NCBI GenBank assembly: GCA_016234115.1
Contig: JACRHD010000018.1
Location: forward strand, 20,724-84,723
DNA from: Nitrospirota bacterium
GTDB taxonomy: Bacteria; Nitrospirota; Thermodesulfovibrionia; UBA6902
Direction of reading: 5' to 3'
DNA: 64,000 nt
Under the pieces are notes generated by a model. The model saw only the letters and a list, made by a program, of their open reading frames with translations. It had not been told where the DNA came from and ran no database searches. Position numbers and translations under genes: made by a program. Shown piece after piece: positions 1,447-35,959 of the stretch (position 1 is the first letter of the stretch; each line of letters starts with the position of its first letter).

Positions 1447-3516
1447 ATGGAACAAAGACCGGCAAATAAATTTTATATCACCACTCCCATCTACTACGTC
1501 AACGACGTCCCGCACATCGGGCATGCCTACACGACCGTTGCCGCCGACATCCTTTCGCGTTACAACAGATTAAGGGGGAAAGAGGTGTTTTTCCTGACCG
1601 GGACGGATGAGCACGGCCAGAAGGTCGAGAAGGCCGCGCAGGGAAGGGGACTTTCCCCCAAAGAGCATGCCGACCGGATGGTTGAGAATTTCAAGGCCCT
1701 CTGGAGAAAACTGAATATCTCAAATGACGCCTTCATCCGCACTACCGATCCGGAACATATCAAGACTGTGCAGGGACTCATACAGATTCTCTGGGACAAC
1801 GGGGAGATAGAAAAGAGGCAGTACGCCGGATGGTATTGCACCCCTGATGAGCGGTTCTGGACAGAGAAAGCCCTGGTCGGGGGGAACTGCCCTGATTGCG
1901 GACGGCCTGTTGAGCAGATACAGGAGGAGAACTATTTCTTCCTGATGTCGAAGTACCAGGTCAGGCTCATTAAATATATTGAAGACAACCATTCGTACAT
2001 CCTTCCGGACACGCGCAGGAACGAGGTGCTGGGATTTCTAAAGAACAACACCCTTGGAGACCTCTGCATATCGAGGCCGAAGGCGAGACTCGCATGGGGG
2101 ATTCCCTTTCCTTTTGACGAGGCCTTTGTGACTTATGTCTGGTTTGACGCGCTGGTGAACTATTTTTCCGCAACACGCTACCTTGCCCCGCAAAAAGGAG
2201 AGGGTCAGGGGTCAGGGGTCAAGGGTCAGGAAGAACCACTTAACTCGTCACTCGTCACTCGTCACTTGTCACTTGATTGGTGGCCCGCGGACCATCATCT
2301 TGTGGGAAAAGACATCCTGACCACTCACGCCGTCTACTGGTCTACAATGCTCATGGCGCTGAAGTTCCCCCTCCCTCAAAATATCTTTGCCCACGGCTGG
2401 TGGACCGTTGAAGGGAAGAAGATGTCAAAGTCTTTAGGCAATGTTGTGGACCCGAATGAAATGGTCGAAAAGTACGGGGCCGACGCCTTCAGGTATTTCC
2501 TCTTCAGGGAAGTGCCGTTCGGTTTAGACGGTAATTTCTCCGAAGAGGCCTTGGTGAACCGGATCAATACCGACCTCGCCAACGACCTCGGGAATTTGCT
2601 GAGCCGTACATTGACGATGATTGAAAAATACAGAAACGGCAAAATTCCTGCACCGGTAGACAGTAAAGACCGTGATGGACTGGAAAAGAGAATTAAGGCA
2701 TGGTTCGCTGCTGATTCAACAACTTCGATTTACAGGAGTTATGATGAATTCTTGAGACAACTGCAATTTAATAATGCACTCGCGCAGTTATGGAAAATTA
2801 TTGGTGAATTAAATGAATACATCGCTTCCTCAGAGCCGTGGAAAGTAAAAGATGAGGAGATGCTTTCCAATATACTTTTTACTCTTGCCGAATCACTTCG
2901 GCTTATTGCGGCTTATATTTATCCTTTCATGCCCTCCGCGGCTAATGCCGTTTGGGAACAACTCGGTATAAGGAAAGAAATAGGAGACATCAAGTTGGAT
3001 GACATTGCGAAGTGGGGTGGCCTGGCGCCCGAAACGAAAATAGAAAAAGGAAAACCGCTTTTTCCAAGGATAGATTTGAAAAAGGAAACATCTGTTGAAA
3101 AAATCCCCCTTGCTCCCCCTTTGACAAAGGGGTATTTAAAGGGTTCCCCCCCGTTGAAAAAGGGGGGTGAGGGGGGATTTTTTGATACAGACAATCTTAT
3201 CGCCATAGAAGACTTTGCAAAGGTGCAACTGAAAATAGGTAAAGTCCTTCAGGCGGAGCGTGTGCCCAAGTCGAACAAACTCATCAAACTTCAGGTCGAT
3301 ACCGGCGAGACCAGACAGGTGGTCGCGGGGATCGGGCAGGTGTATGCGCCTGAAGCTTTGATCGGCAAGAGTATCGTTGTCTTGACGAATTTAAAACCCG
3401 CAAAGCTCATGGGAGTCGAGTCGCAGGGCATGCTCCTTGCGGCAACGGACAGCGAAGGGGCGCTGTCGATTCTTGTTCCGGAGAAGGATGTGAAAGAAGG
3501 GGCGAAGATAAAATAG
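1447..3516 (+). CDS. metG: Methionine--tRNA ligase with C-terminal tRNA-binding (Trbp111-like) domain; carries two repeat-derived inserts
   Basis: PHIGH and KMSKS motifs, Zn knuckle CPDC, C-terminal LKPAKLMGVESQGMLLAA. Confidence 0.98.
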   Translation: MEQRPANKFYITTPIYYVNDVPHIGHAYTTVAADILSRYNRLRGKEVFFLTGTDEHGQKVEKAAQGRGLSPKEHADRMVENFKALWRKLNISNDAFIRTTDPEHIKTVQGLIQILWDNGEIEKRQYAGWYCTPDERFWTEKALVGGNCPDCGRPVEQIQEENYFFLMSKYQVRLIKYIEDNHSYILPDTRRNEVLGFLKNNTLGDLCISRPKARLAWGIPFPFDEAFVTYVWFDALVNYFSATRYLAPQKGEGQGSGVKGQEEPLNSSLVTRHLSLDWWPADHHLVGKDILTTHAVYWSTMLMALKFPLPQNIFAHGWWTVEGKKMSKSLGNVVDPNEMVEKYGADAFRYFLFREVPFGLDGNFSEEALVNRINTDLANDLGNLLSRTLTMIEKYRNGKIPAPVDSKDRDGLEKRIKAWFAADSTTSIYRSYDEFLRQLQFNNALAQLWKIIGELNEYIASSEPWKVKDEEMLSNILFTLAESLRLIAAYIYPFMPSAANAVWEQLGIRKEIGDIKLDDIAKWGGLAPETKIEKGKPLFPRIDLKKETSVEKIPLAPPLTKGYLKGSPPLKKGGEGGFFDTDNLIAIEDFAKVQLKIGKVLQAERVPKSNKLIKLQVDTGETRQVVAGIGQVYAPEALIGKSIVVLTNLKPAKLMGVESQGMLLAATDSEGALSILVPEKDVKEGAKIK
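2201..2275. repeat. In-frame heptamer arrays within metG (RGGGTCA x4, then ACTCGTC/ACTTGTC x4)
   Basis: Encodes EGQGSGVKGQEEPLNSSLVTRHLSL between YFSATRYL and WWPADHHLVGKDI. Confidence 0.9.
3100..3182. repeat. Double-hairpin CCCC..GGGG palindrome, in frame in the metG linker
   Basis: aaatcccc-[cccctttgacaaagggg]-[ccccccgttgaaaaagggggg]-ggggattt. Same architecture at 47474-47553; related copies at 54981-55050, 17881-17910 and 5611-5635. Confidence 0.85.
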
Positions 3517-3533
3517 AACAGGGCGTTGGCTTT

Positions 3534-3604
3534 GTAGCGTTGGGGTTTATCCCCGACGTTTATACCCAATAAGGATCGCCCCCAGTAAATGAGGGCGCTA
3601 CTAC
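3534..3604. repeat. REPIN-like doublet of GTAG-type REP hairpins
   Basis: GTAGcgttggggtttatccccgacg ... cgcccccagtaaatgagggcgctaCTAC: two hairpins with terminal GTAG/CTAC. Confidence 0.65.
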
Positions 3605-3620
3605 AAAAAAGGAAATTAGA

Positions 3621-4067
3621 ATGTCTGCGAAAGTTATCTCCATCAACATAAGCGACAAAAAAGGCGTGAGGAAGAAGGCCGTTGAGACGGCGCTGTTGAG
3701 GGAGAATTACGGGATTGAAAACGACGCGCACGCCTCCGAGACATGGCACAGGCAGGTGAGCCTCCTTGCTCTTGAAAGCATTGACAAGATGCGGGCAATG
3801 GGGCTGAAAGTCGGCCCCGGAGATTTCGCTGAGAATATTACTACTGAAGGCATTGATCTCGTAGTCCTTCCGGTGGGCACTAAAATGACTATCGGTGCGA
3901 AAGTAGAAGCGGAGGTCAGCCAGATCGGCAAGGTATGTCATACGCGCTGTGCTATTTATCATCAGGCAGGCGATTGCGTAATGCCGAAAGAAGGGATCTT
4001 CGTCAAGGTCCTCAAAGGCGGGACGATAAAAGCAGGAGACGAGATAAAAGTAGTTGGTAGCAAGTAG
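3621..4067 (+). CDS. MOSC domain-containing protein
   Basis: GIENDAHA, RQVSLL, PGDFAENITT, QIGKVCH, CVMPKEGIFVKVLKGG. Confidence 0.9.
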   Translation: MSAKVISINISDKKGVRKKAVETALLRENYGIENDAHASETWHRQVSLLALESIDKMRAMGLKVGPGDFAENITTEGIDLVVLPVGTKMTIGAKVEAEVSQIGKVCHTRCAIYHQAGDCVMPKEGIFVKVLKGGTIKAGDEIKVVGSK

Positions 4068-4142
4068 TTAGTAGCTAAGGGAAGGAGGCTTATCCAGTCT
4101 TATTTTTCCCCCCTAACTACTAACTACTTGCTACTAACTACT
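4050..4142. repeat. Heptamer-array inverted repeat (TAGTTGG/TAGCAAG/TAGTTAG) overlapping the MOSC stop codon
   Basis: gtagttggtagcaagtagttagtagctaaggg ... ccctaactactaactacttgctactaactac. Confidence 0.9.
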
Positions 4143-4150
4143 GTACTTTT

Positions 4151-4642
4151 ATGATAACCGTGGCAATCCTTACATTAAGCGATAAAGGCTCAAAGGGTGA
4201 GCGGGTGGATGCGAGCGGTCCGGCAATAGAGAAAATGATGAAAAAGATGGATGCAAAGGTCGTCAGTTGTGATATTCTCCCTGATGAAAAGGCCTTGATT
4301 AAGAAGAAGCTTCTTTCCTTGTGCAATAAAGTGGACCTGGTTTTGACCACCGGCGGCACCGGTCTGTCTCCGAGGGATGTAACGCCTGATGCCACGATGG
4401 AAGTTATTGAACGTGAGATACCAGGGATAGCGGAAGCCATGCGGTCTGAGGGACTGAAGAAGACACCTTTTGCCATGCTTTCAAGGGCGGTTGCCGGGGT
4501 AAGGGGAAAGACCCTCATTATCAACCTGCCGGGGAGTCCGAAGGCGGTCTGGGAAAATCTCGCTGCAATACTCGATGTGCTGCCGCATGCAGTTGAGAAG
4601 ATAAAGGGAAGCCAAAAAGACTGTGGGTGTAGTAATATATAA
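4151..4642 (+). CDS. mogA: Molybdopterin adenylyltransferase, MogA/MoaB family
   Basis: LTLSDKGSKG, DASGPAI, TTGGTGLSPRDVTPDAT, INLPGSPKAV. Confidence 0.9.
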   Translation: MITVAILTLSDKGSKGERVDASGPAIEKMMKKMDAKVVSCDILPDEKALIKKKLLSLCNKVDLVLTTGGTGLSPRDVTPDATMEVIEREIPGIAEAMRSEGLKKTPFAMLSRAVAGVRGKTLIINLPGSPKAVWENLAAILDVLPHAVEKIKGSQKDCGCSNI

Positions 4643-4713
4643 AGTTAAGAGTTTAGAGTTTGGAGTTTAGTAACGACTTTTTCCAGACTCTTAACTCTAT
4701 ACTCCAAACTCTG
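4642..4713. repeat. Heptamer-array inverted repeat (GAGTTTA/GAGTTTG)
   Basis: aagttaagagtttagagtttggagtttag ... agactcttaactctatactccaaactct. Confidence 0.85.
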
Positions 4714-4721
4714 TTTTTATT

Positions 4722-6816: not shown

Positions 6817-6911
6817 ATAGTTCTCCTTTCTTAAAAATGTTTATTTAATTGTTTCTTTTCTGATTTTTTTTTTACTAATGAGGTCATAATTAAAGACACA
6901 TGAATTGGTCC

Positions 6912-7052: not shown

Positions 7053-7098
7053 AACTAATATGTCGTTAGTTATGAGCTCCATAGTCGATGACAACCAG

Positions 7099-8410: not shown

Positions 8411-8427
8411 AATATAATTCTTTTCCT

Positions 8428-8493: not shown

Positions 8494-8509
8494 CATCCTT
8501 TTTATTCTC

Positions 8510-10268: not shown

Positions 10269-10286
10269 GTTCTTTCACCACCAATC

Positions 10287-10325
10287 AATTTCAAATCTCA
10301 AATTTGAAATTTGAAATTTTAAATT
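10287..10325. repeat. Heptamer palindrome (AAATTTC/AAATCTC) at the murB stop
   Basis: aatttcaaatctcaaa|tttgaaatttgaaatt. Confidence 0.75.
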
Positions 10326-11248
10326 TTCCCGATAATCTTTATCTCCGGCTCAAGGACCACACCGCTGTGTTGCCCGACCTTTTCCTTTACTTTCTCCATG
10401 AGCGCCACAAAGTCCCTGCACGTCGCCGCGCCCTTATTGATAAAATAATTCGCGTGGAGCATGCTCACCTCGACTTCCCCGGTCCTCATGCCTTTGCACC
10501 CTGCCGCTTCTATCAGCCTCCCCGCCGCGTCCCCTTCCGGGTTTCTGAAGACGCATCCGGCGGAAGGCTCTCCCAACGGCTGTGTCTCTTTCTTCCTCCT
10601 CAGAAACTCTTTCATGCGCCCTGATATCGCGTCGGGGTTGTCTTTTGTCAGCGCGATATTGCCGCTGAGGATCACAAGATCAGCCGGAAGATTTGAGCTC
10701 CGGTATGAAAATTTCAGTTCATCCTTCTTCAGTATTGAAAGCTCTCCCTTCATATTCATTACCGCGAGGGACACAAGCAGGTCTTTCAGCTCCGTTCCGA
10801 AGGAACCGGCGTTCATATATACGGCCCCGCCGAAATATCCGGGGATGCCCGCAAGCGCCTCCATGCCCGAGCAGCCGTTTTTTTGCGCGAAGTTCAGAAG
10901 GCCCGAAAGCGGCACGCCTGCCCCTGCAAACAGGACCGCCTTCTGTTCATCGGCCTCTCTGGTAAATTCAATGCTCCTGAAGGCCTTCAGCGATATTACG
11001 ACGCCTTCGATGCCGCCATCTCCGGCAAGGACGTTCGTCCCCGCGCCGATGACCTGCACAGGCACATTCTCTCTGCCAGCGGCAAGCAGCGCGTATTTCA
11101 GGGACACAGGGTCTTCGGGAAACAGCATTATCTCCGCAGGCCCGCCTATCCTCAAGGACGTATGCGCCGAGAGGGGCTCGTCGTACCTTATCTCACCCCT
11201 GAATGAAAGCTTGTCGAATATCTCTCTTATAGTCATGCAATATTTCAT
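10319..11248 (-). CDS. murB: UDP-N-acetylenolpyruvoylglucosamine reductase
   Basis: HTSLRIGGPA, GAGTNVL, MNAGSFG, PSAGCVFRNP, LEPEIKIIG. Confidence 0.96.
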   Translation of the reverse strand: MKYCMTIREIFDKLSFRGEIRYDEPLSAHTSLRIGGPAEIMLFPEDPVSLKYALLAAGRENVPVQVIGAGTNVLAGDGGIEGVVISLKAFRSIEFTREADEQKAVLFAGAGVPLSGLLNFAQKNGCSGMEALAGIPGYFGGAVYMNAGSFGTELKDLLVSLAVMNMKGELSILKKDELKFSYRSSNLPADLVILSGNIALTKDNPDAISGRMKEFLRRKKETQPLGEPSAGCVFRNPEGDAAGRLIEAAGCKGMRTGEVEVSMLHANYFINKGAATCRDFVALMEKVKEKVGQHSGVVLEPEIKIIGKI

Positions 11249-11253
11249 TGGTC

Positions 11254-11319: not shown

Positions 11320-12774
11320 CTATTTTTCATTTTGAATCTTTGAATCTTGAATTCTGAATTTTAAATATTCCTCCCCTATCTTCCACACATCGCCCGCCCC
11401 TAAAGTCAACAGCATGTCCCCTTCTCTGAGCTCACCACCGAGATAGGGCAGGATGTCGTCCCTGTCCTTTATATATTCAATATCCATACTTGTCTTTTTG
11501 ATCCCGTTGAACAGGGCCTCCGAGCTGATCCCCTCTATCGGCTGCTCCCCGGCAGCATAAATATCCATCAGCACCACCTTGTCCGCGTCGGCAAAGGCGT
11601 AGAAGAAATCAGTGAGAAGGTCCCTGGTCCTCGTATACCTGTGAGGCTGAAAAACAACTACCAGTCTGGGGTCTGGAGTTCGGAGTTTGGAGTTTTCCTT
11701 TTCTAAACTCCGGACTCCCGGCTCCGGACTCTGCCTTATCGCGTCTTTCGCTGCTTTAAGAGTAGCCATGATCTCCGCGGGATGATGCCCGTAATCATCC
11801 ACCACCCTGACGCCGGAGACGACACCTTTCATCTCGAAACGCCTCTGGACCCCGCTGAAATTCCTCAAGGCCTCCCGCACGTCTTCAGTGTCCATTTTCA
11901 GCTCATTGGCCACAGCGATAGCGGCGAGGCAGTTGCATACGTTATGGGCGCCAAGAAGCGGGATTTCAAAAGCGCCGATGGATTTTCCGTTGAGCGCCGC
12001 CTCGAATTTTGTACTGAATCCGTCCGTCATGACATCCCTTGCAACAAGATCGAGCCGCTCGCTCAGTCCGTAGGTAATAAACCTGCGCGTGACCTTCGGC
12101 AGAAGCTCTTTTATGTGTTCATTGTCACCGTTGAGAATTGAAAGCCCGTAAAACGGTATCTTGTTTATAAATGAAAGGAAGGCGTTTTTTATTTCATCAA
12201 TGGTCCTGAAATAGTCCATATGCTCCCTGTCGACGTTTGTTACGACCGCGATTGTGGGCGAGAGTTTCAAAAAGGAACCGTCGCTCTCATCCGCTTCCGC
12301 CACCAGGAATTCGCCCTGACCGAGTTTCGCGTTGCTGCCGATACCTTTCAGCTTACCCCCGATCACAACAGTCGGATCGAACCCGCCTCCGGCAAGGACG
12401 CTCGCTACCAGCGAAGTGGTCGTAGTCTTGCCGTGAGCGCCGGCAATGAGCACGCCGTACTTCATCCGCGCAAGCTCCGCTAACATCTCGGCCCTCGGGA
12501 TTACGGGAATGGACAGTTTACGCGCGGCCTCGACTTCGGGGTTATAAGGAGAGACAGCCGACGAAGTCACGACCACGTCGGCGTCTTTTATATTCTCCGC
12601 CGTGTGTCCGATACTGATGTTAAGGCCCATCTCCTTCAGCCTGATTGTAGTCTCCGACTCTTTCAGGTCCGAACCGGAAACCTCGTAACCGAGATTATGA
12701 AGGACCTCGGCAATGCCGCTCATCCCGACGCCGCCTATCCCGATAAAATGCACTTTCTCAAAATGTTTGTACAT
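11320..12774 (-). CDS. murC: UDP-N-acetylmuramate--L-alanine ligase, with internal and C-terminal repeat-derived inserts
   Basis: HFIGIGGVGMSG, GAHGKTTTT, EADESDGSF, DDYGHHP, FQPHRYTRT. Confidence 0.98.
   Translation of the reverse strand: MYKHFEKVHFIGIGGVGMSGIAEVLHNLGYEVSGSDLKESETTIRLKEMGLNISIGHTAENIKDADVVVTSSAVSPYNPEVEAARKLSIPVIPRAEMLAELARMKYGVLIAGAHGKTTTTSLVASVLAGGGFDPTVVIGGKLKGIGSNAKLGQGEFLVAEADESDGSFLKLSPTIAVVTNVDREHMDYFRTIDEIKNAFLSFINKIPFYGLSILNGDNEHIKELLPKVTRRFITYGLSERLDLVARDVMTDGFSTKFEAALNGKSIGAFEIPLLGAHNVCNCLAAIAVANELKMDTEDVREALRNFSGVQRRFEMKGVVSGVRVVDDYGHHPAEIMATLKAAKDAIRQSPEPGVRSLEKENSKLRTPDPRLVVVFQPHRYTRTRDLLTDFFYAFADADKVVLMDIYAAGEQPIEGISSEALFNGIKKTSMDIEYIKDRDDILPYLGGELREGDMLLTLGAGDVWKIGEEYLKFRIQDSKIQNEK
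11330..11365. repeat. Heptamer half-array (RATTCAA) forming the MurC C-terminus FRIQDSKIQNEK
   Basis: ttttgaatctttgaatcttgaattctgaattttaaa. Confidence 0.75.
11668..11733. repeat. In-frame heptamer inverted repeat within murC (GGAGTTY / RRACTCC)
   Basis: Encodes QSPEPGVRSLEKENSKLRTPDP just before RLVVVFQPHR. Confidence 0.9.
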
Positions 12775-12778: not shown

Positions 12779-13960
12779 TTATGAGGGTCCGGGGTCCGGG
12801 GTCCAGGGTCCGGTTTCCCCTGACCCTTGCCCCTTGACCCTTGACCCCTCTATCCTATATTCCGTCTTTTTTTTTAATAGTCCCATCATAAGCTCAACAA
12901 TCTTCCCCGCTGCGTCCACATTGCCGAGAGATTTGCTGGCGCGCTCTATCGCAGCTATGGCGTCGGGGTCCTCAAGAAGATATTTCACGATATCAGCGAG
13001 GGTCTTGCCGTTGAGGTCCCTTTCGAGTATCATCTGCGCTGCCCCGGCGTCCCACAGTTTTCTCGCGTTGATTTCCTGGTGATTGGCCGCGGCAAAGGGA
13101 AACGGGACCAGTATCGCGGCCTTTCCGCACGCCGTAAGCTCGGCAAGGGTAGTTGCCCCGGCGCGTGAGATAATCAGGTCCGCAGCCGCGTAGGCGTCGG
13201 CCATATCATAAGCAAACGGAATGACCGTTCCCCTGAATTCCCGGTACCGGTAGGCCTCCCTGACAGCGTCAAGCTCTCTCTCTCCCGTCTGATGCAGAAA
13301 CTGTATACGGTCCCTGAAAGGCTCGAGGTACGCCAGGGCCTCGCTGACGGCCTTATTGATACTGCTTGAACCCAGGCTGCCGCCGAATACAAATATGGTA
13401 AAGAGGTCCCTGTCGAGGCTGAATATTTCGCGTCCCCTTTCCCGGTCTCCGGTCAATATCTCCGTCCTGACGGGATTGCCGGTAAGAAATGTCTTTTCAG
13501 GAGGAAAGAACTCTATACTTTCATGATACGTCACAGCCACGGTGTCGACGAACTTCCCTAAAATCCTGTTGGCAAGCCCGGGGAGCGTATTCTGCTCATG
13601 AATTATTGTGAGGATACCCATCATCGAAGCGCGTAAAACAAAGGGGCCGGAACTGTAACCGCCCACGCCCAATACGAGGTCCGGCCGGAACTCCTTCAGT
13701 ATCCTGCCTGAGTCTTTCAGCGACAGCGGGACAGTAAAAAGCGATTTTGCGGTATGGACGATGTCTTTCCCGACGAGTCCTTCAGACCTGATGAAGCGGA
13801 TTTCGTATCCTTCTTTGGGAATTATCTTCGCCTCCATCCCCTTCGCGGTGCCGACAAACGTGATCTTCGCCCCCGCAACCGCCTTCCCGAATTCCCGCGC
13901 CACGGCGATCGCCGGGAAGATATGACCGCCTGTTCCGCCTCCTGCAATTAAAATATTCAT
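12779..13960 (-). CDS. murG: Undecaprenyldiphospho-muramoylpentapeptide beta-N-acetylglucosaminyltransferase
   Basis: AGGGTGGHIFP, HEQN, GNPVR, GGSLG, ISRAGATT. Confidence 0.98.
   Translation of the reverse strand: MNILIAGGGTGGHIFPAIAVAREFGKAVAGAKITFVGTAKGMEAKIIPKEGYEIRFIRSEGLVGKDIVHTAKSLFTVPLSLKDSGRILKEFRPDLVLGVGGYSSGPFVLRASMMGILTIIHEQNTLPGLANRILGKFVDTVAVTYHESIEFFPPEKTFLTGNPVRTEILTGDRERGREIFSLDRDLFTIFVFGGSLGSSSINKAVSEALAYLEPFRDRIQFLHQTGERELDAVREAYRYREFRGTVIPFAYDMADAYAAADLIISRAGATTLAELTACGKAAILVPFPFAAANHQEINARKLWDAGAAQMILERDLNGKTLADIVKYLLEDPDAIAAIERASKSLGNVDAAGKIVELMMGLLKKKTEYRIEGSRVKGQGSGETGPWTPDPGPS
12784..12866. repeat. Heptamer inverted repeat forming the MurG C-terminal tail (GGGTCAA / GGACCCY)
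   Basis: Encodes TEYRIEGSRVKGQGSGETGPWTPDPGPS-stop. Confidence 0.9.
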
Positions 13961-15200: not shown

Positions 15201-16700
15201 CAGCTTCACCGCTTCCTTGAATTTCCTGCCCCTGTCTTCGAAATCCTTAAACATATCGAAGCTCGCGCACCCTGGCGACAGCAGTACGACATCTCCGGGA
15301 GACGCCTTTGCCATAGAAAGGTCAACCGCCGCCTGAAGGTCCCCTGCAATGAGGGTCTCCGTTACGCCTCCCAATGCCTCTTCAATCTTGTCTTTTGCCT
15401 TGCCGATTAAAACCAGGGCCTTCACTTTCCGCCTGACCAGGTCCCTCAGGACCGAGAAATCGCTCCCCTTGTCAAGCCCTCCCATAATTAAAATTACATC
15501 ATCAAGCCCCTCCAATGACTTAAACACAGCGCCGATGTTTGTCCCTTTGGAATCGTTAATGAACCTGACGCCTCCGACCTCGCCGGCAAATTCGAGCCTG
15601 TGTTCGAGACCCGGAAAACTCTTCAATACGTTTGCAATAGCGTCCGGGGGACATCCCGCTGAAAGGGCAACCAGGGCGGCCGCCATAGCGTTTTCGATAT
15701 TGTGAACACCCTGGATTTTTATCTCATTCTGAGATATAAGTGGGAAGTGAGAAGTGGGAAGTTGGAAGTGGGACGAATTGCAATAAATCATTCCGTCTTT
15801 CAAATAAACGCCCTCGACTTCTTTCATGCGACTGAAATAAAGTATTTTGGGTAATTTTTTACTTCTGACTTTCAACTTCTCAGTCCTCACTTTTTCTAAT
15901 ACATCATCAGCATTAAGGACCAGAAAATCATCGTGAGTCTGATTTTCAAAGATCCTCGCCTTGGCCTCGATGTACTCTTCCATGTTTTCATATCTGTCAA
16001 GATGGTCGGGCGTAATGTTGAGAACAGCCGCGATCTTCGGCCTGAATTCGTTAATTGTCTCGAGCTGGAAACTGGATATCTCGGCAACAATATAATCAAG
16101 AGGCAAGGGACGTGGACTTTCCCCTGACCCTTGACCCATGACCCTTGCCCCTGCCTTTAATATCTCCTCAGACAAGGCAATTCCTATGTTCCCTCCCAAC
16201 AGCGTACCGAACCCCGCCTCTTTCAGCATGAGGTCAACAAGCATGGTGGTTGTCGATTTCCCATTGGTGCCGGTAATGCCTATGAAGAAGGGGCAAGGGG
16301 CAAGGGGCAAGGGGCCGGGAGATCCATGACCCTTGACCCATGCCCCTTGACCCATTTGTTTAATCGCCTGATACGCGAGTTCGAGTTCGCCGATCACCGG
16401 GATGCCCTTTATTCTCGCGCGTTCGGGTACATGGGATTTTAGAGGCACTCCGGGGCTTATTATTATCATGTCGGCAGAGTCGATAATTTCATCCGGATCA
16501 TCACCGGTTAATATATTTACAGACGGCAGCAGTCTCTTAATATGGGCTTCAAGCGCACTTCTTGATTTACTGTCGGTAATTGTGACTTCAGCGCCTAACG
16601 CGGAGAGAAGGTTTGCCGCGCCCGTACCGCTTCGCGCAAGCCCGACTACTACGATGTTTTTACCTTTAAATGTCATTTCCTGTTTTTCCATTTGTATCAT
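15174..16700 (-). CDS. murD: UDP-N-acetylmuramoyl-L-alanine--D-glutamate ligase, with five repeat-derived segments
   Basis: VVGLARSG, ITGTNGKSTT, EISSFQL, GLEHRLE, NDSKGTN, LSPGCASFD. Confidence 0.98.
   Translation of the reverse strand: MIQMEKQEMTFKGKNIVVVGLARSGTGAANLLSALGAEVTITDSKSRSALEAHIKRLLPSVNILTGDDPDEIIDSADMIIISPGVPLKSHVPERARIKGIPVIGELELAYQAIKQMGQGAWVKGHGSPGPLPLAPCPFFIGITGTNGKSTTTMLVDLMLKEAGFGTLLGGNIGIALSEEILKAGARVMGQGSGESPRPLPLDYIVAEISSFQLETINEFRPKIAAVLNITPDHLDRYENMEEYIEAKARIFENQTHDDFLVLNADDVLEKVRTEKLKVRSKKLPKILYFSRMKEVEGVYLKDGMIYCNSSHFQLPTSHFPLISQNEIKIQGVHNIENAMAAALVALSAGCPPDAIANVLKSFPGLEHRLEFAGEVGGVRFINDSKGTNIGAVFKSLEGLDDVILIMGGLDKGSDFSVLRDLVRRKVKALVLIGKAKDKIEEALGGVTETLIAGDLQAAVDLSMAKASPGDVVLLSPGCASFDMFKDFEDRGRKFKEAVKLVQESRVKS
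15738..15895. repeat. Pair of five-heptamer arms in murD (AAGTGGG-type 15738-15772; ACTTCTC-type 15861-15895)
   Basis: Encode SHFQLPTSHFPL and KVRTEKLKVRSK. Confidence 0.8.
16098..16156. repeat. In-frame heptamer inverted repeat in murD
   Basis: Encodes GARVMGQGSGESPRPLPL before DYIVAEISSFQL. Confidence 0.85.
16290..16354. repeat. In-frame heptamer inverted repeat in murD
   Basis: Encodes MGQGAWVKGHGSPGPLPLAPCP immediately before FFIGITGTNGKST. Confidence 0.9.
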
Positions 16701-16712: not shown

Positions 16713-16770
16713 CATGGGCAAGTCACCGACTCGCCCCTACCAAACTCTAAACTCTAAACTCTTGACTCTG
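16713..16770. repeat. GTAG-type REP hairpin abutting a GAGTTTA heptamer arm after the mraY stop
   Basis: Minus strand: gagtcaa gagttta gagttta gagtttg GTAGGGGCGAGTCGGTGACTTGCCCATG. Confidence 0.85.
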
Positions 16771-17942: not shown

Positions 17943-19328
17943 TCACGTTGATAATCCTCTTATAATCCGCTCGGCTATTTTTTCCATCTTCATGGATCTT
18001 GATCCCTTTACCAGCACGGTATCTCCTTCTTTCAACAGGGTCATGATGCCTTCCGCAGCCTCTTCCGAATCTCTGAAGGTGTAAATTTCGGGACCGGTCT
18101 TTTTTTCTTTGATGTTTATGCAATCTTCCGCGGCCATACTCATCATCCGGCCGACGGCCATAAACACATCAACGCCTGCCCCTGATATCATCCTGCCGAG
18201 TTCTTTGTGGGCGTCGTCTGAAAATTCATCGAGCTCACCCATATCGCCCAGCACGGCGACCTTTCTTCCCAGGGCAGCCACCCGGATGGTCTCTTTCAGC
18301 GACTCTTCCATGGATGACGGGTTGGCATTGTAAGAATCATTTATCAAAGTTATTCCTTTTATCTTCCTGATCTCGAACCTCATCTTGCAGGCGCTGAAGG
18401 CTTCAAGCGCCGCCTTTATTTCCTCCAGGGGAACTCCTAAGGAAAAGCCCGCGGCAGCGGCAGCGAGCGCGTTATATACGTTAAACTTTCCATGCACGCT
18501 CAAATTTATGGGTATGCTGCCCGATTCTCTGAATTCCAGCGTAAACCCTGTCCCGCTTTCAGTGGCCCTGACCCCTTTGGCCATGACATGGGCCTCATTA
18601 TTTATTGAAAAGGTAATGACGTCGCCGTTGAATCTGCCCGCTTCGGCAAGCCCTTCCATTAAAAATCCGTCATCGGCATTGACCGCGGCAACTTGGAGTC
18701 CGTGCAGGATTTCGAGTTTTGCGTTCCGGACTGCTTCATGACTGCCGAGCCTGCCTAAATGGGCGGTCCCTATATTGGTAATTATTCCGTGTGTCGGGAC
18801 CGCTATCTCGCATAACCTTTTTATCTCCCCCGGGGCGTTCATCCCCATTTCAAGGACCACGGCCTCGTGGATATTCTCAAGCCTCGTCAGGCTCAGCGGC
18901 AAACCGATATGGTTATTCAGGTTGCCCTCGTTTTTAAGGGTCCTGAATCTCCTTGAGAGGACCGCGTACACCATTTCCTTTGTCGTCGTCTTTCCGCTGC
19001 TGCCTGTTATGGCGATTACCGGGACGTCCTTCTTCATCCGCATGAAATGGGCGAAATCCTGCAACGCGCTCAGCGTGTCCTTCACCCGGATTATCACCTT
19101 GCCCTTCGGCAGCGCTCCCTGCATTGACGACACCACCGCGCCGTCTCCTTTCAAAAGGGCCTTATCCAGGAAGGCATGCCCGTCGAAGTTATCGCCGCGC
19201 AGGGCAAAAAATATCTCTCCTTCCGCTATCGTCCTGGAATCTATCGAGACGCCGCTGAAGGCCATCGAACGTCCCGATAACAATTCTCCGCCTGTTGCCT
19301 TGAGAATGTCGTCTACGGTTATTGACAT
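17943..19328 (-). CDS. murF: UDP-N-acetylmuramoyl-tripeptide--D-alanyl-D-alanine ligase
   Basis: ITGSSGKTTTK, NLNNHIGLP, LEMGMN, NDSYNANP, VLGDMGELD, VKGSR. Confidence 0.97.
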   Translation of the reverse strand: MSITVDDILKATGGELLSGRSMAFSGVSIDSRTIAEGEIFFALRGDNFDGHAFLDKALLKGDGAVVSSMQGALPKGKVIIRVKDTLSALQDFAHFMRMKKDVPVIAITGSSGKTTTKEMVYAVLSRRFRTLKNEGNLNNHIGLPLSLTRLENIHEAVVLEMGMNAPGEIKRLCEIAVPTHGIITNIGTAHLGRLGSHEAVRNAKLEILHGLQVAAVNADDGFLMEGLAEAGRFNGDVITFSINNEAHVMAKGVRATESGTGFTLEFRESGSIPINLSVHGKFNVYNALAAAAAGFSLGVPLEEIKAALEAFSACKMRFEIRKIKGITLINDSYNANPSSMEESLKETIRVAALGRKVAVLGDMGELDEFSDDAHKELGRMISGAGVDVFMAVGRMMSMAAEDCINIKEKKTGPEIYTFRDSEEAAEGIMTLLKEGDTVLVKGSRSMKMEKIAERIIRGLST

Positions 19329-19410
19329 AATTCAAAATTCAACATTCAAGATTCAAAACCGGACATTCAGACAAGCTTAATCTTGAATGTTGAATTTTGA
19401 ATCTTGAATT
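19329..19410. repeat. Near-perfect heptamer inverted repeat (AATTCAA/CATTCAA/GATTCAA) spanning the murE stop to the murF ATG
   Basis: aattcaaaattcaacattcaagattcaa ... aatcttgaatgttgaattttgaatcttgaatt; gives MurE the tail IQDSKFNIQD. Confidence 0.92.
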
Positions 19411-20933
19411 GCTTTTTTTATGACCTCCTCATCGCTGAAGTGATGTCTCACTCCCTTAATCTCCTGGTAATTCTCATGGCCCTTGCCGGCAACAAGCACC
19501 GTGTCTCCGTCCTTTGCCATGAAGACCGCCTCCCTGATGGCCTCCGACCTGTCGGGCCGGACCGAATAATTGCCGCGCACGCCTTTTAATATGTCATCTA
19601 TTATTGCCCCCGGCTCTTCATTCCTGGGGTTGTCCGAGGTGACAATTACAAAATCACTGAGCTCCGATGCAACCGCGCCCATCAGGGGCCTCTTGGTCCT
19701 GTCCCGGTTGCCGCCACATCCGAAGACCGTTATCAACCGTCCCTTTGTCAGGGGTCTTGCCGCCTGTAAAAGTTTTTTCAGGGCGTCATCCGTGTGCGCA
19801 TAATCGACAATACACAGAAAGCCCTGCCCTTCGTCTATGTTTTCAAACCGGCCGGTTACAGGCCTCGTGTTCATGATCCCGGTCCGTATCGCCGTCTCAC
19901 TCATACCCAGAGAATACGCAATCCCCGCTGACATCAGGATATTGTAAACATTAAACATGCCGATCAACTGTGATTCAACCCTGAACCCTCCAGCCGGCGT
20001 CTTTATGTCAAACGATACGCCGCGCAATCCCTTCCCGTGTACGGGCGGGGTCACCCCGCCCCTACTTCTTGCCCCTTGCCCCTTGCCCCTTGCCCCTGTT
20101 TCTATGTTTTCCGCCCGTATCATCGCTCCTTCTTCAAGACCGCAGGTTGTGACCTCGCAGTCAAGGCTTTGAGCCAGAGGCCGCAGCCTCGGGTCATCCC
20201 AATTCAATACGGCAGTTCCGCCCGGGGCAAGATAATTGAATATCCTGCTCTTGGCGCGGAAGTATTCGTCCATGGTGCCGTGGAAATCGAGGTGGTCTTG
20301 CGAGAAATTGGTAAAGGCCGCTGTCTTAAAAGCGCATCCCTCTATCCTTTTAAGGGCCAGCGCGTGGGAAGAAACCTCTAATACCGCGTAATCCATCCTA
20401 TTATACACCATTTCACTCAGGCACCTTTGCAGGTCCAGGGACTCCGGCGTCGTATGCGATGCCGGGACCTCTTCTTCCCCGGTGATATAACAGATGGTTC
20501 CCATAAGGCCCGCCCTCTTTCCTCCGGCGTTCAGTATATTTCTTGTAATAAAGCTCGTTGTCGTCTTCCCGTTCGTTCCTGTAATTCCGATCAGTGATAA
20601 ACTCCTGGAGGGGTTTCCGTAAAAGGCGGCAGAGACGAGCGCGAGCGCTTCCCTGCTGTCGGTCACTTCAACGAAAGCAACGTTTTTTTGAATGGCGAAT
20701 GGTCCTGCGTCTTTTAAATCCGCCGCCGCCTTTTCCGAGACAATGGCAACAGCCCCCCTGTTTACCGCATCTCTAATGTAATCATGGCCGTCAACGGACA
20801 ACCCCCTGACAGCCACGAAGAGATAACCGTCTCTTACGGTCCTTGAATCATAAGCGATCCCCCTGATCTCGGCGTCTGGAGGTCCGGCCCTCCGTCTTAC
20901 GCTGAGACCCTCTGATAGTTTCGATATCGTCAT
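19377..20933 (-). CDS. murE: UDP-N-acetylmuramoyl-L-alanyl-D-glutamate--2,6-diaminopimelate ligase
   Basis: ITGTNGKTT, TTPES, EVSSHAL, DHLDFH, DYAHT, GCGGNRD, DNPR (meso-DAP type), GKGHE. Confidence 0.98.
   Translation of the reverse strand: MTISKLSEGLSVRRRAGPPDAEIRGIAYDSRTVRDGYLFVAVRGLSVDGHDYIRDAVNRGAVAIVSEKAAADLKDAGPFAIQKNVAFVEVTDSREALALVSAAFYGNPSRSLSLIGITGTNGKTTTSFITRNILNAGGKRAGLMGTICYITGEEEVPASHTTPESLDLQRCLSEMVYNRMDYAVLEVSSHALALKRIEGCAFKTAAFTNFSQDHLDFHGTMDEYFRAKSRIFNYLAPGGTAVLNWDDPRLRPLAQSLDCEVTTCGLEEGAMIRAENIETGARGKGQGARSRGGVTPPVHGKGLRGVSFDIKTPAGGFRVESQLIGMFNVYNILMSAGIAYSLGMSETAIRTGIMNTRPVTGRFENIDEGQGFLCIVDYAHTDDALKKLLQAARPLTKGRLITVFGCGGNRDRTKRPLMGAVASELSDFVIVTSDNPRNEEPGAIIDDILKGVRGNYSVRPDRSEAIREAVFMAKDGDTVLVAGKGHENYQEIKGVRHHFSDEEVIKKAIQDSKFNIQD
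20039..20098. repeat. In-frame GGGGCAA x4 arm plus GTAG REP hairpin within murE
   Basis: Encodes GARGKGQGARSRGGVTPPVH; minus strand ...gggcaag aa GTAGGGGCGGGGTGACCCCGCCCGTAC. Confidence 0.9.
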
Positions 20934-22811: not shown

Positions 22812-22873
22812 CGGGGTCAAGGGAAGAAGTTAAGTGATTTTACCCTTGACCCTTGCCCCCGGACCCTTGACCC
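22812..22873. repeat. Heptamer inverted repeat (GGGTCAA) after the ftsL stop
   Basis: ggggtcaaggg ... cccttgacccttgcccccggacccttgaccc. Confidence 0.8.
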
Positions 22874-22875
22874 TT

Positions 22876-24560: not shown

Positions 24561-24651
24561 ATACGATAAGTATATGGAGGCAATGGGTTCTTGTCAAGGG
24601 AAAAATTACTACTATATTTTGTGTCTTATTGCAGGAAGATATACTGTAAGT

Positions 24652-24735
24652 AGCGGTCAGCGATCAGCAATCAGCAATCAGTCGGAATCGACCGAGGATC
24701 TTTTGCTGAGAGCTGATTGCTGAACGCCGGCAGCT
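24652..24735. repeat. Heptamer inverted repeat (AGCRATC / TGCTGAN) upstream of xerD
   Basis: agcggtcagcgatcagcaatcagcaatcag ... tgctgagagctgattgctgaacg. Confidence 0.85.
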
Positions 24736-24746
24736 ATTAAAACTTT

Positions 24747-25622
24747 ATGGTCGATATCATAGAAAGGTTCCTGTCTTATCTGACAATCGAAAAAGGACTT
24801 GCATCGAACACAATAGAAGCGTACAAAAGAGACCTGCGTAAATTCAGCGCTTATCTCAGCGAGGCGGGGAAAGATATAACGGACTTCGGCCGCGGCGATA
24901 TCCTTTCCTTCATAAGCCGTCTCCGGGATTCCGGAAACCAGACTGCCACCCTTGCAAGAAACATATCCGCACTGCGTGGCTTATGCAAATTCATGCTCAT
25001 TGAAAAAATCATCTCGGAAGACCCGGTTGAAAACCTCGCCGCGCCCAAGGGCTGGAAAAGGGTCCCGAAAATAATCGGCGTCGAAGACGTCTCCTCCCTG
25101 CTCAGAAAACCTGCCGGGGAGAAATTCTCCCTCAGGGACCAGGCCATCCTTGAGATACTTTATTCATGCGGCCTGAGGGCCAGTGAAGTGATAAACATGA
25201 AAGTCAGCGACATAAATTTTGAAGCCGGCTTTATAATCATTTTAGGGAAAGGGTCCAAGGAAAGGGTCGTGCCGGTGAATGAGACGGCGCTGGAGACCAT
25301 AAAAAAATATATCGGGGAGTTGCGACCGGCCCTCCTCAATAAAAAAACAAGTCCCTTTCTGTTCCTGCGAAAAGGCGGAAAACCGATGACGAGGCAGAGA
25401 CTGTGGCAGTTGATAAAGACCTACTCCGGGGGACTGCCGGTCAGCGTCTCTCCTCACACCCTCAGGCACTGTTTTGCGAGTCACCTGCTGGACGGGGGCG
25501 CGGACCTGAGGGCGCTGCAGAAAATGTTGGGGCACGCGGACATATCCACAACACAGATATACACAAAAGTCACGCCCGAACGGCTGAGGAAAATTCATAA
25601 GGAATTCCATCCCAGGGGATAG
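24747..25622 (+). CDS. xerD: Site-specific tyrosine recombinase XerD
   Basis: GLASNTIEAYKRDL, GLRASE, GKGSKER, HTLRHCFASHLL, LGH, TTQIYT. Confidence 0.93.
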   Translation: MVDIIERFLSYLTIEKGLASNTIEAYKRDLRKFSAYLSEAGKDITDFGRGDILSFISRLRDSGNQTATLARNISALRGLCKFMLIEKIISEDPVENLAAPKGWKRVPKIIGVEDVSSLLRKPAGEKFSLRDQAILEILYSCGLRASEVINMKVSDINFEAGFIIILGKGSKERVVPVNETALETIKKYIGELRPALLNKKTSPFLFLRKGGKPMTRQRLWQLIKTYSGGLPVSVSPHTLRHCFASHLLDGGADLRALQKMLGHADISTTQIYTKVTPERLRKIHKEFHPRG

Positions 25623-34571: not shown

Positions 34572-34594
34572 CAGCAGCTAATTAGAAAATGCGC

Positions 34595-34629
34595 AAACAA
34601 AAATACCCCTTACCGGGGTATTTTTGTTT
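34595..34629. terminator. Bidirectional intrinsic terminator-like palindrome
   Basis: aaacaaaaatacccc ttacc ggggtatttttgttt. Confidence 0.7.
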
Positions 34630-34708
34630 GCCGTCGTCCATGCTTCGGCAGCCACCTTTACTTCCCTATTCATTTCTAATAACATAGAAGCAAAAAGTCA
34701 CACATCCT

Positions 34709-35959
34709 ATGCTTGAAAAATTAAGATACCTGACAACGGGTGAGTCACACGGGCCGGCTTTGATTTGCGTAATCGAGGGAGTCCCGTCCAATCTTTCTTT
34801 ATCCGGAGAAGATATTGACAGGGACCTTATCAGGAGGCAAAGAGGCTACGGCAGAGGCGGCAGGATGAAAATAGAATCCGACCACGCTCAAATCATGTCC
34901 GGCGTCCGTCACGGTAAAACACTCGGCTCTCCGATATCCCTGCTTATTGAAAATAAAGACTGGGAGAATTGGCGTCACATCATGAATCCTGAACCTGCGG
35001 GGGAGATTCATGAATCGCCCCTGCAAAACCAATCCCCAATCTCCAATCCCAAATCCCAACCTGTTACCCGCCCGCGTCCGGGACACGCGGACCTTGCGGG
35101 AGCCCTGAAATATAACACTCATGACATGCGCAATATCCTTGAACGCTCAAGCGCCCGCGAAACTGCCGCGAGGGTGGCGGCCGGAGCAGTGGCGAAGAAG
35201 TTCCTCGCTGAATTCAATATACGGATTGTCAGCTATGTAACTGAGATAGGGGGAATAAAGGGGCAAGGGGCAGGGGTCAAGGGGCAAGGGGCAGAAAAGA
35301 ATTTGTTAGCGCTATTTAAACAAGCGGAAGCGTCTCCGGTCAGATGTCCTGATAAGGAAGCTGAAATGAGAATAATTAAAAAAATCGATGAGGCCATGAA
35401 AAGGGGCGATACCCTTGGCGGGGTTTTTGAGGTGATGGCATTTGGGGTCCCGGCGGGACTCGGCAGCCATACACAATGGGACCGGAAGCTCGACGCGAAA
35501 CTGTCGTCCTCTCTGATGAGTATCCAGGCGATTAAAGGTGTCGAGATAGGACTCGGGGTCGAGATGAGCAGGCGGTGTGGATCGGAGGTTATGGATGAAA
35601 TATTCTATAAAGGGTCAAGGGTCAGGGGGCAAGGGTCAGGATTCTACAGAAAGACGAATAATGCCGGAGGCATCGAGGGCGGAATGAGCAACGGTATGCC
35701 TATTATGGTCAGGGCCGCGATGAAACCGATACCTACCTTGAAAAAGCCGCTGGCCTCTGTGGACGTCATTACCAAAAAGCCGTTCACGGCTGCATATGAA
35801 AGATCGGATGTGTGCGCGGTGCCTGCTGCATCGGTTATCGGAGAGGCTGTAACGGCAATAGCGATTGCAGACAGCTTCCTTTGCAAGTTCGGCGGCGACA
35901 GCATGGAAGAAGTCAGGAGAAATTACGAAGGGTACATGAAGCAGACGGGTAAATTCTGA
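34709..35959 (+). CDS. aroC: Chorismate synthase, with three repeat-derived inserts
   Basis: [55 protein letters not shown]. Confidence 0.98.
34997..35059. repeat. Decayed REP hairpin plus CAATCCC heptamer arm, in frame in aroC
   Basis: gcgggggagattcatgaatcgcccctgc aaaa ccaatcc ccaatct ccaatcc caaatcc; encodes [21 protein letters not shown]. Confidence 0.8.
35260..35294. repeat. In-frame GGGGCAA/GGGGTCA half-array in aroC
   Basis: Encodes [12 protein letters not shown]. Confidence 0.85.
35611..35640. repeat. In-frame AGGGTCA half-array in aroC
   Basis: Encodes [11 protein letters not shown] between DEIFY and [10 protein letters not shown]. Confidence 0.85.

Follow-up and report, generated by a model that had tools for sequence, protein, structure and literature searches.

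We report that essential genes in a 64,000-nt stretch of an uncultured Nitrospirota genome (assembly GCA_016234115.1, contig JACRHD010000018.1, positions 20,724 to 84,723; hereafter the window) carry short tandem arrays of 7-nt units, here called heptamer arrays, within their intact reading frames. Judging from sequence comparison, it is likely that these proteins tolerate, at permissive sites, heptamer arrays and hairpins of a lineage-wide, self-renewing set, which are translated there and filtered by reading frame and stop codons. We observed the in-frame position of the arrays, the sharing of their sites among relatives, the turnover of their content, length changes in multiples of three nucleotides (3n) including 21-nt steps, the avoidance of stop codons and the sharing of units within genomes.

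The source lineage of the window is Thermodesulfovibrionia-like, and the genes concerned lie as follows.

1447-3516, plus strand: metG
5653-24530, minus strand: complete dcw cluster
34709-35959, plus strand: aroC

The dcw cluster runs in the order ftsZ, ftsA, ftsQ, ddl, murB, murC, murG, ftsW, murD, mraY, murF, murE, a penicillin-binding protein (PBP) gene, ftsL, rsmH, mraZ, and type IV pilus genes lie between it and aroC. The closest MurD loci in a genome-collection scan came from uncultured Nitrospirota/Thermodesulfovibrionia metagenome-assembled genomes from groundwater; the best of them is 69% identical, so the species of the window is not among the reference genomes. The next MurD relative in the protein database is 75% identical, and when a close strain of the window genome was sought, the best MurD, AroC and MetG relatives were 75-78% identical. 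Recent events were therefore followed in three other close genome pairs.

Tandem Repeats Finder returned about 30 period-7 arrays within 1.3-35.6 kb, with copy numbers of 3.0-5.7, mostly about 4. A strict scan gave 24 period-7 segments, against 0-1 in 20 triplet-block shuffles, and a second detector found 15 runs at period 7 and 0-1 at every other period from 4 to 12. The original prediction, made from the letters of the window alone, had counted at least 14 heptamer segments within intact open reading frames (ORFs); this count was borne out by 14 strict segments lying fully inside six full-length enzymes (MetG 2, MurC 2, MurG 2, MurD 3, MurE 2, AroC 3), and every peptide it quoted is present at its place. 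Four further strict segments straddle the 3′ ends of murB, murC, murD and murE, and heptamer arrays abut stop and start codons in the window. Array density is about fourfold higher in intergenic than in coding DNA (60.7 vs 14.8 nt/kb); given this density, coding sequence is still disfavoured by the arrays, and its share is nevertheless unusually large. Twenty-three of the 24 strict segments fall in positions 1-36000, and positions 36001-64000 hold only weak intergenic inverted arrays, at 46660-46734 and 58673-58757.

The arrays that contribute to proteins are listed here; the internal variable sites of MurD are numbered s1-s4, and those of AroC a1-a3. The peptides quoted in the original prediction span 16290-16355 at MurD s1, 20040-20096 in MurE, 35258-35293 at AroC a2 and 35609-35641 at AroC a3.

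2191..2277, plus strand: MetG internal insert QKGEGQGSGVKGQEEPLNSSLVTRHLSLD, with (GGGTCAG)x4 at 2200-2230 and (ACTCGTC)x4.4 at 2239-2276 (Tandem Repeats Finder, strict scan)
11323..11366, minus strand (tail peptide 11323-11358): MurC C-terminal tail FRIQDSKIQNEK, an (ATTTTGA)-type array running into the stop codon
11668..11730, minus strand: MurC internal insert SPEPGVRSLEKENSKLRTPDP, directly N-terminal to FQPHRY, from imperfect inverted arrays AGTTTGG/CGGACTC (plus strand; I7, 79% complementary)
12779..12855, minus strand (tail peptide 12782-12850): MurG C-terminal extension EGSRVKGQGSGETGPWTPDPGPS, from inverted arrays (sense GGGTCAA../GGACCCC..) whose hairpin ends at the stop codon
15166..15201, minus strand (tail peptide 15177-15197): MurD C-terminal tail QESRVKS, from an (ACTCTTG) array spanning the stop codon
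15738..15773, minus strand: MurD s4 SHFQLPTSHFPL, (AAGTGGG)x5 on the plus strand (sense CCCACTT), lag-7 identity 0.81
15858..15893, minus strand: MurD s3 KVRTEKLKVRSK, from a degenerate array of (AAGTGAR) type whose periodicity is only weak (lag-7 identity 0.46)
16098..16151, minus strand: MurD s2 GARVMGQGSGESPRPLPL, a G-rich array and short complementary arm, 15-aa gap against 3lk7
16286..16355, minus strand: MurD s1 MGQGAWVKGHGSPGPLPLAPCP, directly before the P-loop ITGTNGKST, an inverted (GGGTCAA/GGGGCAT)x4 + (GCCCCTT)x4 hairpin
19326..19410, minus strand: hairpin across the murE stop codon, -35.1 kcal/mol, z -7.1, arms 100% complementary over 24 nt (I6)
20040..20099, minus strand: MurE internal insert GARGKGQGARSRGGVTPPV, (AAGGGGC)x4 followed by the GC hairpin GGGGCGGGGTGACCCCGCCC
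34997..35059, plus strand: AroC a1, a 30-nt palindrome (34996-35025) followed by (CCAATCC)x4 (I19), 12 aa more than 1q1l
35258..35294, plus strand: AroC a2, (AAGGGGC)x5, no gap against 1q1l and no net length change
35608..35641, plus strand: AroC a3, (AAGGGTC)x4, 6 aa more than 1q1l, hypervariable in relatives

The host proteins align over their full length with known structures (MetG 7-686 with 9shc, MurD 9-497 with 3lk7, AroC 2-413 with 1q1l). MurD has the four internal variable sites and a variable C-terminus, and its s1 segment faces a 22-aa gap against 3lk7; residues 244-277 of MetG, the insert, face 6 residues in 2csx. As had been proposed, the inserts lie beside conserved motifs and not within them, abutting ITGTNGKST and FQPHRY without interrupting either, and the new C-termini of MurC, MurD, MurE and MurG do come from arrays. 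The further proposal that the peptides are insertions holds for most of them, which are extra relative to outgroups, and fails for AroC a2, MurD s3 and s4 and part of the MetG segment, where existing loops seem to be overwritten at unchanged length.

Three units of a 7-nt period suffice to pass through every frame, so that TAA, TAG and TGA must be absent from all sense frames of an intragenic array, and each array would yield a peptide with a 7-residue period. The 14 internal coding arrays indeed contain no stop trinucleotide in any sense frame, and 12 of 14 intergenic arrays contain 1-5; nine of the 14 coding arrays would gain stops if inverted. Because of this stop avoidance, GGGTCA-type units always stand on the sense strand, and intragenic partner arms use GCCCCTT or GGACCC and not the exact complement TGACCC (the right arm of the MurG tail avoids TGACCC), so that their stems are mismatched. 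Stem complementarity is about 80% in coding and about 90% in intergenic hairpins, from few cases. Second arms rich in TGA sit exactly over stop codons and form new C-termini. At murE, the sense (AATTCAA)n arm of the stop hairpin encodes the MurE tail IQDSKFNIQD (19380-19409), and the complementary, TGA-rich (TTGAATN)n arm lies in the murE-murF spacer.

Stop-free arrays together with strict 3n length changes are what translation would predict, unlike excision, ribosomal bypass or pseudogenisation. We regard it as extremely improbable that the segments are missing from the mature proteins through RNA or protein removal or ribosome skipping, or that the genes are pseudogenes or assembly artefacts: both constraints are expected only if the segments are read, segments of 21-90 nt are far too short for inteins or group I/II introns, no Rfam family was matched there, and in independent assemblies from NCBI, JGI, ENA and Logan over 360 orthologues run intact and in frame across the sites, the genes lying in a complete, syntenic dcw cluster. 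Predicted peptides across insert junctions would include AYQAIKQMGQGAWVK and GARGKGQGAR.

The same insert sites are occupied across more than 100 orthologues, with a heptamer unit that differs from species to species, and outgroups lack the segments. The MurD sites are occupied in loci L001-L028 and empty in the distant Nitrospirota L036, L040 and L052 and in outgroups. At MurD s1, where the window has GGGTCAA..GCCCCTT, the units are AAGGGGC x4 in L002, GAGTTAT..CCCATCA in L003, GGGGTCA..AACCCCC in L005, AAGGGTC x4 in L012, AAGTTCA x4.5 in L013, GGCAAGA..CGCCTAT in L016 and CGGCAAT in L018. Of 19 relatives with an insert at s1, 18 have 7 as their best lag; outgroups have a repeat-free stretch of 6 aa there. 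Units are likewise species-specific at MurD s2-s4 (s2 being hypervariable in relatives), MurC, MurE, AroC and MetG. The original prediction had named array-free orthologues carrying the same sequences as a finding that would speak against it; array-free orthologues do not carry them. The events are not specific to the genome of the window, the sites being common to the whole Thermodesulfovibrionia-like clade while their content turns over.

Individual sites differ in reach. Before FQPHRY, MurC of L002, L003, L004 and L006 has heptamer peptides that are longer and of other sequence, and MurC of outgroups has none; the MurE internal insert occurs only in the subclade of the window and L001-L010 and is absent from L011 onwards and from outgroups; MurG of relatives terminates at or near LLKKK. 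The MetG loop has a baseline of 15 aa in 61 of 121 relatives, and its 34-aa heptamer form is found in a minority that includes the window. All three AroC sites are hypervariable in 120 homologues, with length modes of 19, 26 and 33 aa at a1 and 22, 29, 36 and 43 aa at a2 and heptamer-type peptides such as ELRVKSLESKESELKT, GVRSQESGVRSQES and KTQNSKLKIQNS. Period-7 arrays are common in loci of the window's clade. Nitrospiria-type murD loci (L031, L035, L043, L048, L051, L055, L056, L064) have an abundant family of their own, AATGCGG/ATTGCGG/AATCCGA, and the magnetotactic Nitrospirota clade L019-L030 has no period-7 arrays in the same operon loci.

MetG and AroC also carry repeats of another kind. 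At 3098-3183 (plus strand), residues 552-579 of MetG, a nested palindrome of about 85 nt, AAAAATCCCCC...CCCCCTTTGACAAAGGGG...GGGGGGATTTTT, whose arms are complementary to 80%, encodes KIPLAPPLTKGYLKGSPPLKKGGEGGFF in frame within the linker that precedes the C-terminal tRNA-binding domain; it would represent a second, non-heptamer repeat class in frame, with translation predicted. Peptides of PPLxKGGxGGF type recur in MetG linkers and AroC a1 of relatives. The peptide encoded by the AroC palindrome at 34996-35025 (TGCGGGGGAGATTCATGAATCGCCCCTGCA; residues 97-106) recurs in AroC and MetG of relatives, and further palindrome-like peptides, GERPFARTK and RGQVLNLTPQ, recur at the AroC/MetG sites.

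MurD was modelled with AlphaFold2 using 56 homologues (model numbering equals ORF numbering minus 3). The model has a mean predicted local distance difference test score (pLDDT) of 84 and a predicted template modelling score (pTM) of 0.85. Its only internal stretches with pLDDT below 50 are 117-127, within s1, and 186-193, within s2; s3 is modelled as a helix (265-276, pLDDT about 70-78) and s4 as a confident inter-strand loop (pLDDT about 90). The expectation of low-confidence surface loops therefore stands for s1 and s2 and fails for the s3 helix and for s4, and some MurD inserts appear, in the model, to be floppy loops and others to be integrated into the fold. Lengths are conserved at s3 (19 aa) and s4 (13 aa), yet the units AAGTGAA, GGCGATA and CAAGGTT are found there, and relatives of the same s3 length class (19-21 aa) carry GGCGATA and CAAGGTT at s3; this seems to amount to overwriting in place. 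The s4 segment is missing in L036, L040 and L052, and its length modes are 13 and 20 aa. In the array-free relatives L019, L025 and L028, non-periodic loops of similar length occupy s3 and s4, which may be ancient inserts that decayed in those relatives or pre-existing loops that were later overwritten.

The conserved length and residue pattern of s3 and s4 in many relatives (SEKLKVKSEK; hFxLPxSxFPL), their ordered modelling and the recurrence of sites beside domain boundaries would suit inserts selected as peptides, for instance as flexible linkers, or as loops for interactions in the assembly of the divisome or of multi-enzyme complexes. We nevertheless hold such adaptive protein features to be very improbable as the general explanation: the peptide sequence is unconserved at most sites, even between genomes 92-96% identical, the composition of the inserts tracks the DNA unit in three frames and not a protein motif, the same units occur in spacers, and pLDDT falls below 50 at s1 and s2.

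Turnover of the arrays is fast. In a set of 120 MurD homologues, inserts are identical between close pairs whose core identity exceeds about 98%, and pairs at 93-96% differ almost only at the insert sites. The length differences of 39 independent close MurD pairs have a second, minor maximum at 7 aa, with 11 events as compared with 4 at 6 aa and 6 at 8 aa, and length modes at the MurD C-terminus are 5, 12 and 19 aa in the 120 homologues. A modulo test on length differences gave a clear 7-aa excess only at AroC a2, AroC a1, MurD s4 and the C-terminus. We do not claim a general 7-aa quantisation, the most complex sites (MurD s1 and s2, AroC a3) being without such periodicity.

Recent events were read from the DNA of three close pairs, L081/L082, L083/L084 and L085/L086. 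L083 and L084 (95.7% identical) differ by indels of 21 and 48 nt, and L085 and L086 (94.8% identical) by indels of 21 and 12 nt; L081 and L082 (92% identical in murD) differ by a 21-nt indel at s4 and by the exchange of a whole array pair at s1. The indels of pairs at 95-96% identity are confined to insert sites. Counted over entire loci, the intragenic indels number 11 and every one is a multiple of three, unlike two clear intergenic indels of 88 and 25 nt; the 25-nt indel is located in an intergenic array. Net 3n length had been anticipated, and lengths in close relatives do change by 3n, 21 nt being markedly in excess. Phase variation was considered and rejected, the intragenic indels being 3n in 11 of 11 cases and all retrieved orthologues being in frame. 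L081 and L082 also have, at 1998-3038, a D-Ala-D-Ala carboxypeptidase (Peptidase_S11) gene between mraY and murD, whose first ~30 codons are heptamer arrays, AATTTCA/CACTGTT in one genome and AAAGTTA/CTCTTAA in the other.

How the arrays may arise is suggested by sites where one member of a pair is empty or altered. L085 has a complete 88-nt heptamer hairpin in the mraY-murD spacer (~812-900) that is absent in L086 (about 95% identical), and the empty L086 site has the arm unit of L085, AACGGAC, just once; in L082, the array ATACAGG continues the murD sequence beside it, GTGATACAGGA. These sequences suggest that arrays grow from a local heptamer and that the partner arm is its inverted copy. 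Array pairs more than 150 nt apart share units (at most one mismatch) in 17.0% of cases within a locus and 5.8% between loci, a value reached in 0 of 500 permutations, which points to homogenisation or spread inside genomes. It is conceivable, as a tentative extension, that a dedicated process rewrites arrays and their inverted arms at fixed dock sites in essential genes, by a local seed, fold-back or template switching, and conversion. Were that so, conserved housekeeping enzymes across Nitrospirota would have hypervariable loops made by a self-renewing class of intragenic micro-elements and not by passive microsatellite debris.

[quoted passage not shown] The 21-nt inserts in L082 and L085 contain small hairpins (CCCGAATAACTCGGG, CGGAATCGATTTGTTCCG), unit families are common within a genome, the G-rich copies in MetG, MurD s2, MurG and AroC a3 have alike left-arm ends (AAGGGTCAGG...), and other palindromic repeats such as PPLxKGGxGGF occupy the same sites in relatives, all of which would fit mobility. 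Such copies have no full-length consensus, however, only the 7-nt unit being common and element length ranging from 21 to about 110 nt; no consistent target-site duplication was seen at the indels of 21, 48 and 88 nt, one 21-nt insert being flanked by GGGTCAGG; and in two cases the array unit equals flank or empty-site sequence, which suggests in-situ growth. No transposase or REP-associated tyrosine transposase (RAYT) was found in a Pfam scan of 20 ORFs at 37.6-62.3 kb or among the identifiable genes at 1-36 kb. We judge mobile copies of this kind to be quite unlikely.

Each element was folded as sense RNA and its z score taken against shuffles, with the following intergenic and gene-end arrays included.

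1350..1445, plus strand: intergenic (GTAGTTA)n/(TAACTAC)n hairpin upstream of metG, fold z -5.1, 4-5 stop trinucleotides per arm
4040..4150, plus strand: intergenic (GTAGTTA)n/(CTAACTA)n hairpin, -53.6 kcal/mol, z -8.0 (I3, arms 91% complementary)
4638..4718, plus strand: intergenic (AGTTTAG)n/(ACTCTAA)n hairpin, fold z -4.3
10280..10335, minus strand: palindromic (AATTTCA)n array over the murB stop codon and murB-ddl spacer, fold z -3.0 (I18/I21)
16739..16769, minus strand: intergenic (AAACTCT)x3 array between mraY and murD (Tandem Repeats Finder, strict scan)
22839..22875, minus strand: G-rich (AAGGGTC)-type array directly after the ftsL stop codon (Tandem Repeats Finder, strict scan)
24639..24748, plus strand: intergenic (TCAGCAA)n array with inverted partner between mraZ and xerD (I2; Tandem Repeats Finder, strict scan)

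Two architectures emerged, inverted array pairs with long hairpins and single arrays without a fold. About half of the elements are inverted pairs with strong hairpins; this class comprises 1350-1445, 4040-4150, 4638-4718, the murB/ddl junction, the MurG tail (-44.6 kcal/mol, z -4.21), MurD s1 (-43.1 kcal/mol, z -4.2) and the murE stop element. Weaker hairpins are formed by the MurC internal insert (z -2.3; -2.27) and MurD s2 (z -1.6), and MetG (z +0.36), MurD s4, AroC a1-a3 and the MurD tail show no fold beyond shuffles, z being about 0 for MurD s4, AroC a1 and a3 and the MurD tail. The hairpin was therefore rejected as a universal feature, about half of the intragenic arrays folding no better than shuffles. 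Ten arrays match a G-quadruplex (G4) motif (G3+N1-7 x4), a sequence motif only, and heptamer arrays account for 10 of the 11 such motifs in the window; shuffles contain 1.7. An Rfam scan of the window found no RNA family at the arrays.

Strong hairpins at gene junctions (murE/murF z -7.1, murG end z -4.2, murB/ddl z -3.0), the three intergenic hairpins at z -4 to -8 and the coincidence of G4 motifs with arrays of about four units, a preference shared with GGGNATC repeats (PMC4692102), raise the question whether the arrays are selected nucleic-acid elements, that is, stabilisers, attenuators, RNase sites, pauses or G4 structures in dcw and other operons, with the peptides as a by-product. Occupancy kept over deep divergence, DNA periodicity kept at length-conserved sites and the co-variation of both hairpin arms upon a unit change (L082) would accord with this. 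Many intragenic arrays nevertheless have no partner arm or fold (MetG, MurD s4, AroC a1/a3, the MurD tail), neither unit sequence nor structure is conserved across species, single sites are empty in the nested relatives P0021, P0112 and P0116, and the magnetotactic sister clade is array-free in the same operon. We judge selection on the nucleic acid to be unlikely as the main cause.

On the explanation we prefer, translated arrays at permissive sites, the genome would hold a family of short heptanucleotide arrays of about four units, many of them inverted pairs that fold into hairpins. Arrays inside genes would persist only where the protein tolerates residues, in inter-domain or surface loops, linkers and C-termini, and the ribosome would read them into low-complexity peptides of 7-residue period (GQGSGVK, SSLVTRH, SHFQLPT). 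One filter would be net length, which must be 3n, hence changes of 21 nt (3 units) or other 3n steps; the other would be the absence of stop trinucleotides in any sense frame, which would fix orientation and force mismatches in the second arm. The sites would be old and inherited and the content not, arrays being lost, expanded or swapped for another unit family. New arrays would apparently be seeded from a local heptamer, with an inverted copy as second arm, and homogenised within the genome, putatively by slippage or fold-back synthesis plus ectopic conversion. We infer that the inserts have no role in catalysis.

Several points weigh against this explanation. Translation of the segments is itself deduced from sequence constraints. 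Unit-by-unit slippage would frameshift essential genes and so does not account for the replacements, and local seeding rests on two clear cases. The modulo test gave no 7-aa excess at MurD s1, MurD s2 or AroC a3, and a few loci rich in arrays, the window among them, dominate the statistic on sharing within genomes. Long-lived occupancy of sites over a deep clade, and the 7-nt DNA periodicity kept at the length-conserved s3 and s4, could mean that the DNA or RNA element itself is under selection. Low pLDDT may be due in part to a heterogeneous alignment, and second gene copies or an associated enzyme may lie beyond the 64-kb window.

Other repeats and genes were noted in the window. The FtsQ C-terminus at 8556-8597 (minus strand) has an 18-nt/6-nt tandem repeat encoding the tail KDKDKVKDKVKAKV, with a 3n period distinct from the heptamer family, and FtsQ tails of relatives have very different lengths. 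The ftsQ-ftsA spacer (8428-8493) holds an inverted pair of 9-nt repeats (CACAGATTA x2-3 and complement). Two copies of a distinct palindrome family resembling repetitive extragenic palindromic (REP) sequences (core GTCATCCTGAGCCTGTCGAAGGATG and complement) lie at 6956-7035 and 50531-50586, in the spacers between ftsA and ftsZ and between a methyltransferase gene and an HAD hydrolase gene. The C-terminal tail KDPKGQGASKGQAAPEKK of a PilO-like protein (31670-31747, plus strand) resembles the G-rich heptamer peptides; its DNA, AAAGGGCAGGGCGCGTCAAAGGGCCAGGCG, is vaguely periodic and may be a decayed array. A tRNA gene at 28913-28984 (minus strand) is the sole Rfam match in the window at the gathering threshold. 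The second half (36001-64000) contains two-component regulators, multihaem cytochromes, ribonucleotide reductase and other genes, and at 52100-54081 (minus strand) a restriction-modification pair, consisting of an endonuclease of MjaI type and a fusion of an N4/N6 DNA methylase with an SNase-like domain, lies in the lowest-GC stretch of the window (GC 0.40) and resembles an acquired island.

If translation holds as we infer, the arrays would provide a repeatable route from non-coding repeat DNA to protein at a few fixed positions in Mur ligases, methionyl-tRNA synthetase (MetRS) and chorismate synthase. The clade would then amount to hundreds of natural insertion experiments at the same sites, from disordered (s1, s2) to seemingly integrated (s3, s4), in which the step from junk peptide to fold element can be compared directly across genomes. 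It also offers clean, testable signatures of selection on repeat dynamics in the steps of 21 nt, the stop-free orientation of the arrays and the mismatches between hairpin arms. In practice, loops of this kind make proteins longer, lower alignment and model confidence, and can mislead gene callers and metagenome assemblers.

Among known systems, contingency loci have repeats in surface or restriction-modification genes that switch them on and off by frameshift. They resemble the arrays described here in having tandem repeats in coding sequence and a high indel rate, whereas here the genes are essential and the changes 3n. The small dispersed repeats (SDRs) of Nostoc punctiforme are reportedly 21-27 nt long and hairpin-capable, with a defined consensus, and are said to occur within heptamer arrays and conserved genes; the 21-nt hairpin inserts in L082 and L085 look alike in kind. 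As to MITEs, the inverted arms here are the arrays themselves.

RPEs, which the original prediction named as the precedent, form ten families of elements about 100-150 bp long, each family with its own conserved full-length consensus and encoded peptide, and are found in Rickettsia only (Ogata et al. 2000; MITE review PMC10969869). The likeness proved closer than had been stated, about half of the elements here being hairpin pairs, of which MurD s1, the MurG tail and the MurE end fold strongly: both systems place palindromic repeats in frame in unrelated housekeeping genes, with a peptide compatible with the fold, and both are also intergenic. Here, however, only a 7-nt unit recurs, over 21-110 nt, it varies by site and species, the host is Nitrospirota and about half of the intragenic copies are non-palindromic, so that RPE membership fails despite a real functional likeness. 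The precedent also has to be widened, intragenic heptamer arrays having been known already (PMC2700814, PMC4679880).

Geobacter metallireducens carries H4, 49 copies of four GGGACCG heptamers, read as regulatory RNA (PMC2700814). It shares the four G-rich heptamers with the arrays here and differs in being a single unit family in one genome; frame, orthologous sites and evolution were not analysed in that study (PMC2700814). TAACTGA repeats of Beggiatoaceae, cyanobacteria and Bacteroidetes are mostly intergenic, just upstream of start codons, and a translational role was proposed; in a Beggiatoaceae draft genome, 10 sets lie inside ORFs in the stop-free orientation, giving the peptide LSVISYQ, one set lies in a variable surface loop of an RNA polymerase beta′-like protein, and the rule that stops set the orientation was noted (PMC4679880). 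That system has one dominant unit, rarely intragenic and mostly in hypothetical proteins, whereas many units, hairpin pairs and core enzymes are involved here.

In the literature searched we found no description of heptamer repeats in Nitrospirota, and none of orthologous sites that persist while their units turn over, of 21-nt quantisation or of an arm asymmetry driven by stops. Cyanobacterial repeats of the short tandemly repeated repetitive (STRR) type and the G4-forming GGGNATC repeats of Xanthomonas and Nostoc are reportedly depleted in coding sequence and were studied as DNA with a regulatory or structural role (PMC4692102). They share with the arrays here the 7-nt unit, about four units per array, dispersal, position near gene ends, occasional inverted pairs and a G-rich subclass with the G4 motif, and differ from them in that more than half of the arrays in 36 kb here lie inside essential genes; site sharing, turnover and filtering by frame and stops are not known to have been described for those repeats. 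The elements of the window belong to the heptanucleotide long simple sequence repeat (long-SSR) phenomenon, which, from cyanobacteria, Beggiatoaceae, Xanthomonas and Geobacter, is here extended to Nitrospirota.

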